A model generated the notes under the pieces. That model worked only from the letters and a program-made list of their open reading frames with translations. It was not told where the DNA came from and searched no databases. Source: a virus (taxonomy: Duplodnaviria > Caudoviricetes). Taken from it: 53,795 nucleotides of DNA. The DNA lies in the IMG/VR virus record IMGVR_UViG_3300026926_000001, positions 1-53,795 of that record; one strand, 5' to 3'. This document shows positions 2,954 to 49,976 of the stretch, in pieces (position 1 is the stretch's first letter; each line of letters starts with the position of its first letter). Both the position numbers and the translations under genes were made by a program.

Positions 2954-3303
2954 TGCACACAATCCCACTTGAGTTCGAGGGCAGCATTCCGCTGCCCAAG
3001 GAACTGAACGGCTATGATTGCCGTATCTGCATGGTGCTTCAGCGTAGTGAAGTTGACGAGACACACTACGTTCTGCGCACCCACAAAGATGAGAGGCTGG
3101 ACGCGAACAACAACATGGTGGACTACTGTGACATCCTCACAGGTGAAGGCACCATTTGTCTGCCAGACCACCACTACGCGCATGCTGACCACAGTTGGGC
3201 AGAGCGCGTGACATACGCTGAAATGCTTGAAGTGCGTCTGCCTGCTGACGAATATCAGCGGTTGGACGTCAATCGTTGGCGCAATCGACCTGAGGTAGTG
3301 TAA
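2953..3303 (+). CDS. Hypothetical protein
   Basis: TGATG coupling; CRIC and CLPDH motifs. Confidence 0.65.
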   Translation: MHTIPLEFEGSIPLPKELNGYDCRICMVLQRSEVDETHYVLRTHKDERLDANNNMVDYCDILTGEGTICLPDHHYAHADHSWAERVTYAEMLEVRLPADEYQRLDVNRWRNRPEVV

Positions 3304-4875: not shown

Positions 4876-5232
4876 ATGAACGGTGGAGATGTATCCATGA
4901 TCAGTAGTGCAGAAGAGGCGCAACGCACACAGGCCGCACGATTCCAAATCTACAGGGATGCCGTGCTTAGCGGTTTCTACAACGAGTGGCCTGAGACCGT
5001 GGTCTACAACGGCTACCAACTGGTTCAAGAAGGCGAAAAGGTCGCCGTGGTGCGCAACGGTACGGTACTGATAAAGGTCCAGACCAAGCACATTGCGAAG
5101 TGTTGGGTGATTTGCCGTGTGAACAACTGTGGGTTGAGCGAGGCGACAAAGCTGGTGGCGGCAGAGGACAACACCATATTCTGCCAAGACTGCGGCAGTT
5201 ACGTTGCTCAGCCACACGATTGCCACGACTAA
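4876..5232 (+). CDS. Hypothetical protein with Cys/His motifs
   Basis: SD AAGGTGG; CRVNNC, CQDC...HDC. Confidence 0.6.
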   Translation: MNGGDVSMISSAEEAQRTQAARFQIYRDAVLSGFYNEWPETVVYNGYQLVQEGEKVAVVRNGTVLIKVQTKHIAKCWVICRVNNCGLSEATKLVAAEDNTIFCQDCGSYVAQPHDCHD

Positions 5233-5690
5233 AATCTGGCACGAATACCCCACTAATGATACTATCTTGGGCTTTGTTTCCAGGACCTACCAGCCAAGTA
5301 CAAATGGCGGCGGAATGGGAAGAAAGCCTAAGCGACGCACTTGCCATGACTTGTTCTTGTAACGCGACGTTCCGTTTGCGACATCTGATCTATAGGTCGT
5401 CGCAGAAAAGTGTCTGTCCCAACCATCTAACATACGCATTGTTCAGTAAGGTTCCCCCTGGTGTTATGTGGTGGCAGTCAATAGAAGACTCAATGTTGAT
5501 TTTGCGTGTTCTTTATGTGTGAGACTCTCCTAATCTGCCATGATAAGACTCGCAAATCTGGTACAATCGCGCAAAAAGATGGTAGTATCCGGTTATAAGT
5601 CATCACAAGTCTTTTTAATTCAAGATTAATGCGTCATGACACAGGTTTTATAAGCGGGGCACCCCGTAAAACTTCACTTTGACTGAGATT

Positions 5691-44183: not shown

Positions 44184-45539
44184 GTGAACCTTTACGCGCA
44201 AGTTGCAATCTATACGGCAATCGGAGGCTGTGCGGGAGCACTCGTGCTTTCTCAGTTGAGCGGCAGTGGAGTACTCGGCCAGGAACTAAAATTGGCTGTG
44301 CCACAAGTTGTAGAAACATCTGTCTCGGTAGTAGAGACGCAGATTCCTACACAACAGTCAGCGACAATCGTACCGTTAGGTGTGCCGACCCAGGTGACTG
44401 CTACTGCAACATCTCCTCCGCCAGTAGTTATAGTGCTGGTACAGCCCACAGCTACATCTACTGAGACGCCTATACCTTCTCCTCAGGTAACCCCGACTGA
44501 TATATCTGCAGAAGAGCCAGAAGCAGTTGGGGTTTCTTTGGTGCAGACGCGCCTTTTGCCGACTGTGCGCTCTTCGCCTGTACAGTTGCCGAGCACAGCT
44601 ACACCCGTCATGATAGAGGTACCTACAGAACCCGAAGTGGTTGAGATCGTCACACCGACCCTAACTCCCACTCCTACTGTAGTGCCTACGATAGTGCCTA
44701 CTGTAATAGCAGCCGCCAACGATGGACAAACTCTGGCGGGGCAGTCGCGACAGACACAAGAAGATTTCCTAGCGGTGTACGGCGAGGATGCTCGAATTGC
44801 TTGGGCTGCCGAACATAATAGAGACACATCGTCGGCATCGGTTACGGGTGGCAGTGGAGTATTGCCAAGTCCCTCCCCTCCATTGTCGCCCGTGCCGACC
44901 CCTACACAGACTTCTACTTCCACATCGGTTACGGGTGGTGGTGAAGGTTTGCCTCCAATCTCCCCAACCACACCATCACCCGTGCCGACCCGTAGACCTC
45001 CTTCTCCTGGTGGTGGACAACCAACAAATACACCGACGGCCACAATTACGGTGACACCTACTGTAGCAACACCGCAACCCACGGCTAATCCGACGGCTAC
45101 TACGACGGTCACAGCTACTGTGACCCCAACACCTACGGTAACGCCAGTGCCTACACCGACAAGCGCAGCGACACCGTTCCCGATAACTGTCACGCCAACG
45201 GGTACTGCGACTCCTACCAATACTCCTCAGCCAGTGAGCACGGCAACCCCGACTATCACACCTGCACCCACGTTGACGAGTACGCCAACTCTTAGTCCTA
45301 CACCTACATCTACCGTATCGGTTCAACCCACAGCAACGCTACGACCAACACGCACACCAAGGCCAACCAATACACCACGTCCGACTCCGACACCAGGATG
45401 CCCTCCAGGTCAGATTCCAATACCAAATAGCCCTTCAGGTTGTATGTCTAAACCCGATGCGACAAGAACAGCAGTTGCATTGACACAGACAGCTATGCCA
45501 ACAAATACGCCTCGCCCAACAAGGACACCCAGACCGTAA
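44184..45539 (+). CDS. Membrane-anchored Pro/Thr-rich protein
   Basis: N-terminal hydrophobic segment; long PT/TPT tracts. Confidence 0.75.
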   Translation: MNLYAQVAIYTAIGGCAGALVLSQLSGSGVLGQELKLAVPQVVETSVSVVETQIPTQQSATIVPLGVPTQVTATATSPPPVVIVLVQPTATSTETPIPSPQVTPTDISAEEPEAVGVSLVQTRLLPTVRSSPVQLPSTATPVMIEVPTEPEVVEIVTPTLTPTPTVVPTIVPTVIAAANDGQTLAGQSRQTQEDFLAVYGEDARIAWAAEHNRDTSSASVTGGSGVLPSPSPPLSPVPTPTQTSTSTSVTGGGEGLPPISPTTPSPVPTRRPPSPGGGQPTNTPTATITVTPTVATPQPTANPTATTTVTATVTPTPTVTPVPTPTSAATPFPITVTPTGTATPTNTPQPVSTATPTITPAPTLTSTPTLSPTPTSTVSVQPTATLRPTRTPRPTNTPRPTPTPGCPPGQIPIPNSPSGCMSKPDATRTAVALTQTAMPTNTPRPTRTPRP

Positions 45540-45742
45540 TGTTGGGTGCTGATGTTATCACAATTGGTACTGTAATTGGTGCTCTTATAGGCATCATTAC
45601 GTTCCTACTACGTGTCTTAGTGGCAGCAAAGACACAGCATATACAGGCGCTTGAAAAACAGGTGGCAGATCTAACTGCAGAAAGAAATCTATACCGCGAC
45701 CTGAACTTTGCGGCAGGTCGTACTCCTCCAGATCACCCGTAG
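45539..45742 (+). CDS. TM plus coiled-coil protein (holin/lysis accessory-like)
   Basis: TAATG coupling; one TM then heptad helix. Confidence 0.6.
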   Translation: MLGADVITIGTVIGALIGIITFLLRVLVAAKTQHIQALEKQVADLTAERNLYRDLNFAAGRTPPDHP

Positions 45743-45832
45743 CCACGGCGGGTGAGGAAGGACCCCGAACTCTAGCGTGGTGCTTGCCCGCCACTAGCGC
45801 TAGATAGTAGGGGTCTTTCTGTATTTGGGCAA

Positions 45833-45870
45833 AGAGAAACCCCCTGTTGGCGGGAACAGGGGGTTCTCTA
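45833..45870. terminator. Hairpin between convergent operons (likely bidirectional terminator)
   Basis: CCCCCTGTT-ggcggg-AACAGGGGG extended by AGAGAA/TTCTCT. Confidence 0.7.
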
Positions 45871-46077
45871 TTAGGAAGATTTCTCTTCTTCGTGGGGAGT
45901 TGGCGTGGGCTGCGGCTGTGGCAGATCCTGGTTGGGTGCTTCGCCTTCTGGCTTGTCCTGGCCTGGAGGGCCACCCTGAGGGTGTTGCCCGGACTGTCCA
46001 GGTGCGCCACCCTGTGGATGCTCTGGATGATCAGGCTTGTCCTTCTCTTCCTTGTCCTTTTCGGGAGTTTCAGTCAT
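45871..46077 (-). CDS. Small disordered Pro/Gln/Glu-rich protein
   Basis: SD AAGGAGG; HPQGG(A/P)PGQ repeated twice. Confidence 0.7.
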   Translation of the reverse strand: MTETPEKDKEEKDKPDHPEHPQGGAPGQSGQHPQGGPPGQDKPEGEAPNQDLPQPQPTPTPHEEEKSS

Positions 46078-46102
46078 TCGTTCCTCCTTTCCACGCAAAT
46101 GT

Positions 46103-46234
46103 GCTAGTGGGCTACTGTAGAGACGACTCCGGGGGGAGATGGACGTCTCTACACCCGATAACCAGTCTAGACCCGCACTCTAGCCCGATTCCTATGCCCT
46201 GTTCCACCTGCGGAGGTGGCCCTCGCCCACTAGC
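46103..46234 (-). ncRNA. Candidate structured RNA / 5' leader
   Basis: 10-bp closing helix, three internal hairpins, begins at predicted TSS. Confidence 0.6.
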
Positions 46235-46240
46235 GTATAC

Positions 46241-46269
46241 AGTGTAGCACAGGAAATTTAGGGTAGCAA
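46241..46269 (-). promoter_or_regulatory. Sigma70-like promoter
   Basis: TTGCTA-N17-TACACT with TGn extension. Confidence 0.75.
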
Positions 46270-46273
46270 TCCC

Positions 46274-46714
46274 CTATGCGTTGAGTTGGTAGCTGTCGTT
46301 CTCCTCGTCGATGTCCACATCGTAGCCCTTGCTCTTGAGCATCTTGGCAAACCACGGCACATCGAAGTTCTTGTACGCCTTGACGTCCGACAGCGTTTCG
46401 ATGTTCTTCTTTTCTGCGAATCGCGCTGCGCGACTCTTGATTGCGGCTGCACTACCGCCGCGCTTCATAGCACGCATGATGAAGTCGCGCATGCTGTTTG
46501 CGTTGGGTGTGTAGCCTTCCTCGTCATCAGTCTTGGTAGACTTCTTGGCGACTGGCGCTGCCTTGCCGTTGCTGCGCCCGTTGGTGGATGCCTTGGGAGC
46601 AGCCGTAGTCTTCTTCTTGCTCGAAACTACGACTACCTCTTCCTCATCCTCTTCGTCGTCGGCTTCTGCCACCTTACGACTAGCCTTCGCAGGCACTGCT
46701 GTTCTCTTAGCCAC
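46274..46714 (-). CDS. Putative DNA-binding protein (Lys/Ala-rich N-terminus, wHTH-like C-terminus)
   Basis: SD AAGGAG before GTG 46714; composition. Confidence 0.65.
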   Translation of the reverse strand: MAKRTAVPAKASRKVAEADDEEDEEEVVVVSSKKKTTAAPKASTNGRSNGKAAPVAKKSTKTDDEEGYTPNANSMRDFIMRAMKRGGSAAAIKSRAARFAEKKNIETLSDVKAYKNFDVPWFAKMLKSKGYDVDIDEENDSYQLNA

Positions 46715-47043: not shown

Positions 47044-47440
47044 CGTTGACCCCCACGATATACGGTTTGTGGTTTTGCAGCATGCTAACACTCTCGATAT
47101 CCTCAATGCTAAGGATACCGTCACGCATCAATTGGAAGATTGCCTTATCGTCGCGTACCTCCTGAGGTACGATATGAAATACCAACTCTTCGGGTACATT
47201 GCGACGCCTGAGTAACATTTTCAGTTCGCTATCATCCCAGATCTGAGTAGTACCCTGGCGCTTCTGCCATTTGACACCGCTTTCACGGTCCACTACATCA
47301 GTAAGGTTGTGCCGTTCGTAGTAAGCAATAACCCAACTGTTGATGTTGTCGATGCTGCGCGTGAGCACTTTCTGCTTCTCTACAAGCACTGCACGCCTGC
47401 GCAGCCATTGTAGTAAACTAGCGCGTCCTTTGATTCTCAC
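47003..47440 (-). CDS. Hypothetical protein
   Basis: SD GGAG; overlaps helicase end. Confidence 0.65.
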   Translation of the reverse strand: MRIKGRASLLQWLRRRAVLVEKQKVLTRSIDNINSWVIAYYERHNLTDVVDRESGVKWQKRQGTTQIWDDSELKMLLRRRNVPEELVFHIVPQEVRDDKAIFQLMRDGILSIEDIESVSMLQNHKPYIVGVNGAKRHTDQEDESD

Positions 47441-48923
47441 GAATTATCTCCAGTTCCATTTCTACGTAGGCTTGTCTTCTTTCGTACCATTGATTGCGTA
47501 AGACGCGCGGTTCGTCCACGTAATCACGGACGATAACATCTCTCTTTCCTGGATGGATACGTTGAATGCGTCCAACTTGTTGCGCAATCTTACCTTGTGC
47601 CCTTGTGGGAAACACAAGGTGAAGCCTGTCGAGGCGCGGGATATCGAGGCCCTCGTCTGCCAACTTAGTTCCAAATAGTACGCGCAGATCGCCCTTTCGA
47701 GCAGCCTGGATAGCCGCCGTCCTTTCTTTCTTTGTACGACCGATAGTACGTGTGATATTTCCGTGCTTATCTTTCTTAGTCCCCCCGGCGATAAGGAGTT
47801 CTTGGGCAATGTCAGGTCTACGCTCTTGTAAAGCCCTTGCCAGGAGAGCGAGGTGGTCGATTTGCTGAGATAGGACAAGTTGGACGTGGTTGCCGCTGTC
47901 GTGGTCTCGGATGATGTTCTCGATGATTTGGGCATTTCTTCTTCTATCATGCACAAGAGAACGCACCATGGAGTGCCATTGCTGCATGTTGCTGTACGGG
48001 TAGGTAAAGCCCGTGTCATGAACCATCACGACAGGGTCAACAATGAGTCCCGCACGCTTTAGCGCCCTACGTTGTACCTTGGCAATAACTGGCCCACAGA
48101 TGGCGTACAGCAGTCCCTGCAGATTGTCTTCACGTCTTGGCGTCGCAGTAGCGCCAAAGCGATAGTATGCGGGAAACTGCGTCATTACCTCTTGAAAGCA
48201 AGCCGCAGGACAATGATGTGCTTCATCAAGTATCACCATACCCCACTGCCGGAGGAAATCGTCATCCAGTTCACGCCTCGCCAATGTCATTACGCTGGCA
48301 AGCGTGATCTGCTTTACATCGTAAGTATCGCCCTGTATCAGCCCAGGCTCATAGTCAAGAAGACTGTGGCAATAATCTTGCCATTGCTTGAGAAGATCAT
48401 CAGTATGAGCAAGTATGATCGTTGGTTGTCCCAATTCCGCAACAACGTACAGTAGCATAACTGTCTTACCTGACCCGCAAGGAGCCTCGAGAACACCCTG
48501 ATGCCCATAGTCATCATGCAATAAGTCCTCTACGGCTGGCCGTTGTGGAGCCCATAGTTCAATGTTGTGCGGTAATGGCTTGCTCGGATAGAGAATCCTT
48601 TCGTCTACCCATTCTACTTCCAGATTGTTCTCCCTACACAATCTTTCGAAGTCGGGTACAAATTCTCTCGCGATCTCGTACGTATCGTTATCTTCATTGT
48701 TCTGAATACCGTATATGTGCTTCGGGATATCTATCCACTCGCGTCTACTCTTATCCCAGTAGCGCGTAGGCTGCTTCCGAAATATACGGTCATTATACTC
48801 AGGGTTATCCCACGTAAGATGGGATATCAATGCCCTGAATAACACGGGAGGTACTTGCGATCTAGGCAGGACCAGTTTTCCTCCCACCGTTGCAGTTATC
48901 TTTTGCCTGGACTGTCTAGCCAT
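47418..48923 (-). CDS. Superfamily 2 DEAH helicase
   Basis: APCGSGKT, DEAHH, ATATP, EGLDIP, QQVGRIQR; start set at ATG 48923 by promoter position. Confidence 0.9.
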   Translation of the reverse strand: MARQSRQKITATVGGKLVLPRSQVPPVLFRALISHLTWDNPEYNDRIFRKQPTRYWDKSRREWIDIPKHIYGIQNNEDNDTYEIAREFVPDFERLCRENNLEVEWVDERILYPSKPLPHNIELWAPQRPAVEDLLHDDYGHQGVLEAPCGSGKTVMLLYVVAELGQPTIILAHTDDLLKQWQDYCHSLLDYEPGLIQGDTYDVKQITLASVMTLARRELDDDFLRQWGMVILDEAHHCPAACFQEVMTQFPAYYRFGATATPRREDNLQGLLYAICGPVIAKVQRRALKRAGLIVDPVVMVHDTGFTYPYSNMQQWHSMVRSLVHDRRRNAQIIENIIRDHDSGNHVQLVLSQQIDHLALLARALQERRPDIAQELLIAGGTKKDKHGNITRTIGRTKKERTAAIQAARKGDLRVLFGTKLADEGLDIPRLDRLHLVFPTRAQGKIAQQVGRIQRIHPGKRDVIVRDYVDEPRVLRNQWYERRQAYVEMELEIIRENQRTR

Positions 48924-48935
48924 TGGTGTGCTTTT

Positions 48936-48964
48936 ATTATAGCTAATCTCAGCGTCGCGAGCAA
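48936..48964 (-). promoter_or_regulatory. Sigma70-like promoter for helicase operon
   Basis: TTGCTC-N17-TATAAT, 12 nt before ATG. Confidence 0.8.
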
Positions 48965-49067
48965 TCTGTAAACCTGAACGTAAATCTACTTTTTTGGATG
49001 CAACTGGGAACGTCCTGGCTGCTAAAATGTAGCGTGCCAAAAAAGACGGGTCTTGGGCAGCCAATCT

Positions 49068-49976
49068 ATGACTAGAAACCAACGCCTCGTGCTGGTGTGG
49101 TTTCAAGAACATTGCAGTGTGCGTGGCATAGTCAGGGTAAGCAGCCCTGAGATCGGTTTGATATTCGGTTGGTCGCACCAGTATACCCAAAAGATCCTTA
49201 ATGCTCTTTTAGAGTCTGAGGATCTTGTGTTGCTTCAACGGGGTAGCGGCCAAAGAGCAGCAAAGTATCTGGTTCCGTCAATTAGCTGCAACCAACAAGA
49301 GCTAGCTGCAACCAATTCTGTTTCCACTAGCCAACCCCCCAGGAGTGTCGCCCGCCACGTTCCTAGTTGCAACCAAAAGACGTCAAAAGAGCCACAAAAT
49401 ACACTCTTCCAAAAAAGTGTTGGCCCTTTAGGTAATGCACTAGGTAAGGATAAGGATAGGGAATATGCGTACCAGAGCGAACATATACGTAATGGTACCG
49501 TATTCGATAACGTACCGAGTAACCTGAAGCGCGTTAAGAAGAAGAGTTCTCCATTCAAACGCTTTCGTATACATTGCGAAAATGTGAGACAATGGTCTGG
49601 CCCTGACTTCGTCTGCTATTTCTCCTTTTGTCACCGGGTAAAGTACGGAGAAATGCCTACCATAAACTGGAAGATGGAATGTGGGGCAGCTAACACCTTA
49701 CTGAAGAGATTGGGTGGAGAACGCTGGAAACTCAAGGTATTCCTTCAGCAATCATTCTTGTTTCTCAAGCGTAAGCCCAACGGATTACGTACACTTACCA
49801 ATGATTACGTCTTCCGTGACATTATTGCTCAGAGATATACCGAAGACGAGCTGGATGAATATGCCGATGACTATGTCTTTCCATGGCTCTACGAGAAAAT
49901 GAAGCGAGAAAGTTTAGCAGCTTCAAGAGAGGCCAACGCACGATCAATCCGACGGTCTCTGGGCATCTACGACTAA
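49068..49976 (+). CDS. Putative replication initiator (N-terminal wHTH)
   Basis: wHTH-like N-terminus, internal DNA repeats, upstream of DnaB/DnaG. Confidence 0.6.
   Translation: MTRNQRLVLVWFQEHCSVRGIVRVSSPEIGLIFGWSHQYTQKILNALLESEDLVLLQRGSGQRAAKYLVPSISCNQQELAATNSVSTSQPPRSVARHVPSCNQKTSKEPQNTLFQKSVGPLGNALGKDKDREYAYQSEHIRNGTVFDNVPSNLKRVKKKSSPFKRFRIHCENVRQWSGPDFVCYFSFCHRVKYGEMPTINWKMECGAANTLLKRLGGERWKLKVFLQQSFLFLKRKPNGLRTLTNDYVFRDIIAQRYTEDELDEYADDYVFPWLYEKMKRESLAASREANARSIRRSLGIYD
49283..49376 (+). repeat. Iteron-like repeats TAGYTGCAACCAA x3 (candidate origin)
   Basis: Copies at 49283, 49303, 49364. Confidence 0.7.

Follow-up and report, generated by a model that had tools for sequence, protein, structure and literature searches.

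The leaders of the E. coli ompA and papA mRNAs and the 5' stabilisers of Bacillus are 5'-terminal stem-loops that stabilise the mRNA, and the primary papers on such stem-loops are reportedly those of Emory 1992, Bouvet and Belasco 1992 and Hue 1995. Aptamers built on a four-way junction are found in the SAM-I, yybP-ykoY and NiCo riboswitches, and among phage RNAs the packaging RNA of the phi29 type has complementary loops. In PMC3997798, RppH and RNase E are described as needing single-stranded 5' ends, the RppH of B. subtilis at least two unpaired nucleotides, and this requirement is given as the reason why structures at the 5' end stabilise mRNAs. Mining of IMG/VR 3.0 has yielded 8,495 candidate structured RNAs (csRNAs) of 29-151 nt, some of which lie within 25 bp upstream of genes (PMC10690425).

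Here we describe a structured leader RNA of 132 nt from an uncultured soil phage. The whole stretch of DNA analysed, 53,795 nucleotides long and referred to below as the window, is an IMG/VR virus record of 59% estimated completeness, so that the element resembles the csRNAs of PMC10690425 in both data source and kind of object. Like the 5'-terminal stem-loop stabilisers, it has a stem that begins within 1 nt of the predicted 5' end and lies upstream of a strong Shine-Dalgarno sequence (SD), and this stem is kept with a loop content that varies. It differs from them in that the stem closes a 112-nt insert of three hairpins with an invariant junction, which goes beyond what protection needs. 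The four-way junction with its invariant purines is new; the 5'-terminal structured leader is, as a kind, known.

Results

Genomic context

Related phages are about 90 kb long, one of them with terminal repeats, and the window is therefore regarded as a fragment of a soil phage of about 90 kb. Genes for portal, major capsid and baseplate lie on the plus strand up to about 45.7 kb, and those for a DnaB-like helicase and a primase follow on it from about 50 kb. Between these blocks the minus strand encodes an SF2 helicase and three small genes without a family, followed by the leader unit. The large terminase is only 25-27% identical to those of cultured (Herelleviridae-like) phages, ARAGORN reports 0 tRNA or tmRNA genes in the window, and a protein-anchored scan of the genomes of 185,579 species returned neither a relative nor a prophage copy of the 167-aa protein encoded next to the leader unit. 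The helicase ORF of the window (47418-49190, minus strand) is uninterrupted over 590 codons from a TTG. In four related loci (L002, L003, L004 and L006, at about 5001-5270) the longest helicase frame starts some 70-77 codons later and tblastn matched residues 1-589, which would place the N-terminal part of the helicase in another frame there; this could be due to a separate overlapping gene, a frameshift or a difference in assembly.

Fold of the 132-nt leader

The element occupies positions 46234..46103 of the minus strand, and RNA numbering starts with 1 at 46234. The first-pass annotation had proposed a multi-helix RNA with helices P1 to P4 here. All four are in place and RNAfold agrees with them: its minimum free energy (MFE) and centroid structures both give P1-P4, together with a six-pair extension of P3 (RNA 45-50/70-75). 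The native sequence reaches an MFE of -59.6 kcal/mol, where dinucleotide shuffles average -48.55 (sd 3.9; z -2.83), and only 1 of 200 shuffles matches the stability of the native fold.

P1 pairs RNA 1-10 (46225..46234), the first of which is the predicted start of transcription, 6 nt downstream of the -10, with RNA 123-132 (46103..46112). The first junction strand, J1/2 (GAGGG, 46220..46224), is invariant in the four lineages that have all four helices. P2 (46204..46219; RNA 16-21/26-31) is a hairpin of 6 bp with a CCGC loop that is given by RNAfold as well as by the alignment, and relatives have a hairpin of varying length in its place. The purine-rich J2/3 (AACAGGGCAUAGG, 46191..46203) ends in GG in all four lineages. 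P3 (46160..46190; RNA 52-56/64-68 plus the extension) comprises 6+5 bp with a bulge and the loop GUGCGGG. In J3/4 (AUCGGG, 46154..46159) the GGG is invariant together with the U that opens P4, and P4 itself (46116..46153; RNA 82-91/110-119) has 10 bp, an internal loop, a CUCC/GGAG tip and a C-rich loop, the C-rich tip being common to the window, L020 and L011. The last strand, J4/1 (GUA, 46113..46115), is likewise invariant, reading GUAG with the first letter of P1.

Contigs of four DNA runs partly cover the locus. The sole variant inside the element, found in contigs of two soil DNA runs, is a T for C at 46112 on the plus strand (RNA G123->A), and it opens the innermost P1 pair only. Three further variants fall in the flanking ORFs, at 45898, 46063 and 46319. 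A 31-codon ORF that starts with GTG inside the element (46207..46112) is unlikely to be coding, because it has no SD and because the lengths of the element in relatives (132, 143, 172 and 137 nt) differ by non-multiples of 3.

Two finer features of the earlier proposal are not supported by the comparison with relatives. The hexamer AUCGGG does precede both P3 and P4; its first copy, however, lies in the extended P3 stem and only the GGG before P4 is conserved. A kissing interaction had been suggested between CCGCA at the P2 loop and UGCGG in the P3 loop. These are complementary in the window over 5 nt, which 15 of 500 loop shuffles equal, and the P2 loop is a tetraloop of only 4 nt. The pairing is nevertheless not conserved: in L020, L011 and L014 the complementarity shrinks to 3, 3 and 2 nt, respectively, and 493-499 of 500 shuffles equal it, the level of chance. 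Pseudoknots between the P3 or P4 loops and the G-runs of the junction, also considered, amount to 3-5 nt and are at chance level too. The element thus resembles phi29-type packaging RNA in coming from a phage, in the pairing of its 5' end with its 3' end and, in the window, in its complementary loops, but it differs in that this complementarity is unconserved, in that the phage is of about 90 kb and packages with a terminase, and in that the RNA is an mRNA leader.

Transcription unit

Upstream of P1 lies an extended -10 element, TGCTACACT (TGnTAnAnT; 46241..46249, minus strand), which is kept in the window and its relatives, and 17 nt before the -10 there is a -35-like hexamer, TTGCTA (46264..46269, minus strand), which has 4/6 consensus positions and is not conserved in relatives. 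To call this promoter strong, as had been done, is an overstatement, since TTGCTA-17-TACACT has 8/12 consensus positions and a promoter consensus scan returned 0 sites at its threshold. Each of the 14 related loci that extend to the site has TGnTAnAnT in the corresponding position, and across the whole window the motif shows no enrichment, with 6 matches where 5.4 are expected. P1 begins at the predicted +1 of this conserved promoter, in agreement with the earlier proposal that the RNA starts at a transcription start.

Downstream, the element ends 25 nt before a small ORF, as had been noted. This linker (46078..46102, minus strand) consists of a 15-nt A/U-rich spacer, the SD GGAGG (46087-46083) and 5 nt to the ATG at 46077. 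The distance from the end of P1 to the SD is 12-16 nt in 10/10 elements, and an A/U-rich single-stranded spacer lies 3' of P1 in most forms. Folding of the full leaders reveals the element as a closed domain in 9/10, the exception being L027, with the SD unpaired with the element at a mean unpaired probability of 0.20-0.59. The ORF (45871..46077, minus strand) encodes a P/E/Q-rich peptide of 68 aa that matched no Pfam or PHROG family. Its equivalents in L010-L027 have 30-90 codons and encode very P/E-rich acidic peptides, many of which start MFEDPKPPDP, with a terminator always 3' of them; an MTET start and an NQDLPQP motif are common to the ORFs of the window and of L017. In the window, an intrinsic-terminator-like hairpin with a U-rich tail (45839..45857, minus strand), which has equivalents in relatives, ends the short transcription unit. 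The gene upstream of the unit has only a weak terminator-like hairpin, so read-through transcripts would carry the element internally.

A separate structure lies on the plus strand close by. The stretch 45725-45835 forms a long branched hairpin with a U-rich tail (MFE -50.6 kcal/mol, z -3.73) that overlaps the stop codon of a 67-aa gene (45539..45742) and was found by a short motif in 11/13 sources scanned, the window included. Its apical part is nearly invariant, its inner stem differs between lineages by compensating changes, and what would be A-C mismatches on the minus strand are G-U pairs on the plus strand. No Rfam family recognises it, the best score of 23.6 bits falling short of a gathering score of 64, and it is probably an elaborate terminator or a 3'-end structure of the late operon.

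Homologues

The RNA had been described as one of no recognised class, and the comparison with known families bears this out. Rfam 15 gives 0 matches at the gathering score in the whole window; at E<=10 the region 45800-46400 has five weak matches, on the terminator or inside the ORF and none overlapping 46103-46234, and at E<=1 five related loci have two weak matches, both outside the elements. Neither blastn nor nhmmer with the element against five related loci found anything significant, and a distant blastn search of 50,697 phage records returned no match. In the literature on surveys of structured phage RNAs we found no description of the element, a statement that covers PMC10690425 apart from its supplementary alignments and coordinates.

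Homologues were therefore reached by synteny first, with the helicase and the neighbouring 167-aa gene as anchors, and later through covariance models. The DNA following the 167-aa gene was compared in 15 loci, of which 14 reach the site, L019 being cut before it; L015, L023 and L028, which are the same contigs and coordinates as L014/L009, and L026 and L029, which end inside the gene, were left out. Searched against 17 sources, a model built from the window sequence alone matched L020 (23.3 bits, E 0.006) and L011 (19.7 bits, E 0.04), in both cases over the full length and at the same genomic site, and a model of three sequences found the L014/L024 type at E ~1e-6, all these E-values resting on a shortened calibration.

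Wider searches added little. A scan with the helicase alignment gave no new close relative. The pattern TACACT..GGCGAGGG occurs in at least 116 stretches of viral contigs, and a 22-base three-block pattern in 36 stretches of viral contigs and at least 120 of genome contigs, almost all of them chance matches. Model R2, run on 235 pattern-scan loci (100 + 35 + 100, leaving out the 20 genome-contig loci L288-L307), found nothing convincing, the best scores being 20.3, 16 and 18.6 bits (E 0.08-0.4). The element is single copy in the window, and R2 has 0 further matches in two near-complete 90-kb relatives, one without the element and one with a short form. The blanks of R2 in genome searches are weak evidence, because the prefilter missed elements of L004/L005 that cmsearch finds. 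At 438-564 of the window R2 has a weak full-length match (17.6 bits, E 0.11) that may well be chance; it falls within a structured intergenic stretch of the plus strand (422-575, after an ORF ending at 421; MFE -66.1 kcal/mol, z -2.68).

Distribution and forms

Nine of the 14 loci have an insert that is closed by a stem beginning 6-7 nt downstream of the -10. In L012, L018, L021 and L022 only about 18-25 nt separate promoter and SD and there is no element, and L025 has a small membrane-protein gene at the site. Together with the window this makes eight distinct forms. Three inner hairpins are present in four of them, those of the window (132 nt), L020 (143 nt), L011 (172 nt) and L014 (137 nt), and L024 is a one-letter variant of L014 in which a G-U pair becomes A-U. 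The other four (L027, 79 nt; L017, 70 nt; L010/L016, 61 nt; L013, 50 nt) have a single one and are irregular hairpins of 20-27 bp. P1 is the sole part kept in every form, even where the interior is down to 22 nt; relative to the predicted start site, it follows TGnTAnAnT by 6-7 nt and leaves 0-1 unpaired 5' nt in 8/8 distinct forms.

In the tree of the 167-aa protein the four loci without the element form one clade, sister to L011. They include a relative that is 98% complete and has a helicase identity of 82-84%, and they keep a similar ORF behind the same promoter. Since the same kind of ORF and promoter occur there without it, the element is dispensable. The carriers of the four-helix form are scattered over this tree, the root of which is unsure, and their scatter would fit repeated reduction and loss. 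Among the sequences searched, the element family is limited to a single small clade, which consists of uncultured soil phages. In two loci (L013, about 3015-3165; L019, about 1010-1107, cut) a further small unit lies after the 167-aa gene and before the leader promoter. It has TGnTATAGT, followed at once by a hairpin in which compensating changes distinguish the two loci, then about 100 nt without an obvious ORF and finally a strong terminator. This unit looks like a small RNA gene.

Covariation and the conserved junction

A lack of covariation had been named beforehand as a refuting outcome, and P1-P4 were found to be kept by compensatory changes in four lineages. In an alignment of three rows, 96% of cells are paired and 20/41 pairs have changed on both sides, against 0-3 in controls slid by 1-3 columns; with five rows, 93% of cells are paired and 26/37 pairs have changed on both sides, against 3-8 in slid controls. 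The alignments were fitted to the model structure and so lean towards it, and they sample no more than four independent lineages. For the five-row alignment 0/500 shuffles reach any of the observed measures, a control that ignores the relatedness of the rows. RNAalifold recovered P1, P3 and P4 de novo, with 23/29 pairs compensatory.

The helices share this pattern to different degrees. In the five rows, the 10 pairs of P1 have 98% of cells paired and four of them changed on both sides (positions 2, 5, 6 and 7); P3 has changed on both sides in 11/11 pairs with 94% of cells paired, and P4 in 6/8 modelled pairs. P2, with 80% of cells paired, differs in length in each lineage and is loosely aligned. 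The unpaired letters that are invariant in the four lineages are GAGGG following P1, GGGU leading into P4 and GUAG ahead of the 3' strand of P1. The neighbouring protein is 62-74% identical across these lineages. The comparison thus indicates that the element is a real, conserved and uncatalogued structured RNA whose four helices are kept by compensating mutations.

Could the structure be maintained and still be nearly neutral, a tolerated filler in a dispensable leader? Presence and interior size do vary greatly in close relatives, and the same promoter and SD serve the ORF where the element is missing. Against this, the 26/37 compensatory pairs and the invariant junction, at a neighbour identity of 62-74%, imply purifying selection on the fold, and we regard a neutral filler as improbable. 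A self-cleaving ribozyme, which would be a natural insulator leaving a 5'-OH mRNA, could be imagined for a multi-helix junction with invariant unpaired nucleotides in a 5' leader. It is highly unlikely here, as no Rfam ribozyme family matches even at E<=10 and the reduced relatives lack most of the junction.

The same data show which strand matters. The sense fold is more stable than the antisense fold in 8/8 distinct forms, and G-U pairs make up 42/292 of the pairs in sense folds against 9/250 in antisense folds. An element that is present or absent at one site, with 10-nt inverted termini around a variable interior, has the look of a miniature mobile insertion with terminal inverted repeats or of a palindromic operator. 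Against such a feature of the DNA stand the covarying internal helices and the excess of G-U on one strand only; the element is single copy in the window with no further copy in two near-complete 90-kb relatives, the P1 motif has 42 matches in the window where 50 are expected, and a dimeric operator could not have arms spaced 22-152 nt apart. Sense-strand stability, G-U excess, single copy and a chance-level P1 motif together point to an RNA of the minus strand, and leave a DNA palindrome or mobile insertion exceedingly improbable.

Discussion

Our tentative proposal, which we hold at somewhat under even probability, is that the element represents a new family of leader RNA that acts as a 5'-terminal protective and insulating domain. 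The transcription unit would run from the extended -10 promoter through the 132-nt leader, the strong SD and the 68-codon P/E-rich ORF to the terminator. P1 would pair the first ten transcribed nucleotides with nucleotides 123-132 and give an mRNA without a single-stranded 5' end; it would also close the three inner hairpins into a self-contained four-way junction, and the SD, 12-16 nt downstream of P1, would stay free. Such a leader would hinder decay that depends on the 5' end, by RppH with RNase E or by RNase J, and would make the initiation of translation independent of the upstream context. This is the best-supported mechanism because of what RppH and RNase E require of a 5' end, taken together with the position of P1 at the predicted +1, its distance to the SD and the closed domain. 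What the data show are the structure, its covariation, its strand and its fixed place relative to promoter and SD; where transcription starts, that the leader stabilises the mRNA and whether it has a binding partner are matters of inference.

A plain stabiliser, however, does not account for the whole element: a simple hairpin would suffice for that, and protection leaves the letters of the junction unexplained. We take the invariant junction letters and the three covarying inner helices as signs of an added function, such as the binding of a factor or ligand, or processing into a stable RNA. The invariant purine-rich junction suggests that the four-helix version may also bind something or take a specific tertiary fold.

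Processing might even be the main point. In that case the leader would be cut off, in the A/U-rich spacer or by RNase III inside stacked helices, and live on as a stable RNA of about 130 nt that acts in trans as a noncoding decoy or regulator, or the element would mainly be a processing signal. The early leader of T7 carries RNase III sites, and the reduced forms, irregular hairpins of 20-27 bp, are similar to such phage sites. Both ends of the compact, closed domain are paired, the A/U-rich single-stranded spacer follows P1 in most forms, and a fast turnover of the interior in close relatives (8 forms, 4 losses) would fit a target in an arms race. What makes us doubt this reading, possible as it is, is that every instance of the element is in cis, upstream of one type of ORF at a fixed distance, with a single copy per genome.

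The junction also brings riboswitches to mind. As in SAM-I, yybP-ykoY and NiCo, a P1-closed four-way junction of about 130 nt with junction purines and covarying helices stands in a 5' leader, here directly upstream of an SD, and invariant unpaired purines amid freely covarying helices are the usual signature of a binding core. An aptamer, whether riboswitch-like or a protein operator, might thus regulate the P/E-rich ORF in response to a ligand. Yet unlike those riboswitches the element has no Rfam similarity and no expression platform was found: most forms have no terminator after P1, a U-tract follows P1 only in L013, and the SD is unpaired with the element. The downstream gene is neither metabolic nor that of a transporter. 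The core has been lost in four lineages, close relatives that keep the gene have a single hairpin or nothing, and the family occurs in one small phage clade with none in the 235 pattern-scan loci. Regulation by a ligand is accordingly, in our judgement, unlikely.

A bolder reading, which we offer as a speculation of low probability though not a negligible one, would make the element a new class of phage four-way-junction RNA. Its G-rich junction (GAGGG, ..GG, GGGU, GUAG) would form a specific pocket, or even a small G-tetrad core, for a small molecule or for a factor of host or phage, with the leader as sensor or decoy. If this is true, the fast remodelling between relatives would reflect conflict between phage and host, and the leader would not be a passive stabiliser.

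Returning to the protective leader that we favour, its reach is narrow, since it belongs to one clade of uncultured soil phages and is dispensable in some of its members. Structured leaders that bury the 5' end are a known protection of bacterial mRNAs, and few natural examples from phages have a conserved multi-helix junction. The leader may therefore offer a compact natural 'insulator' part, and its natural variants, with four helices, one hairpin or none in an otherwise identical context, would provide a ready-made deletion series.
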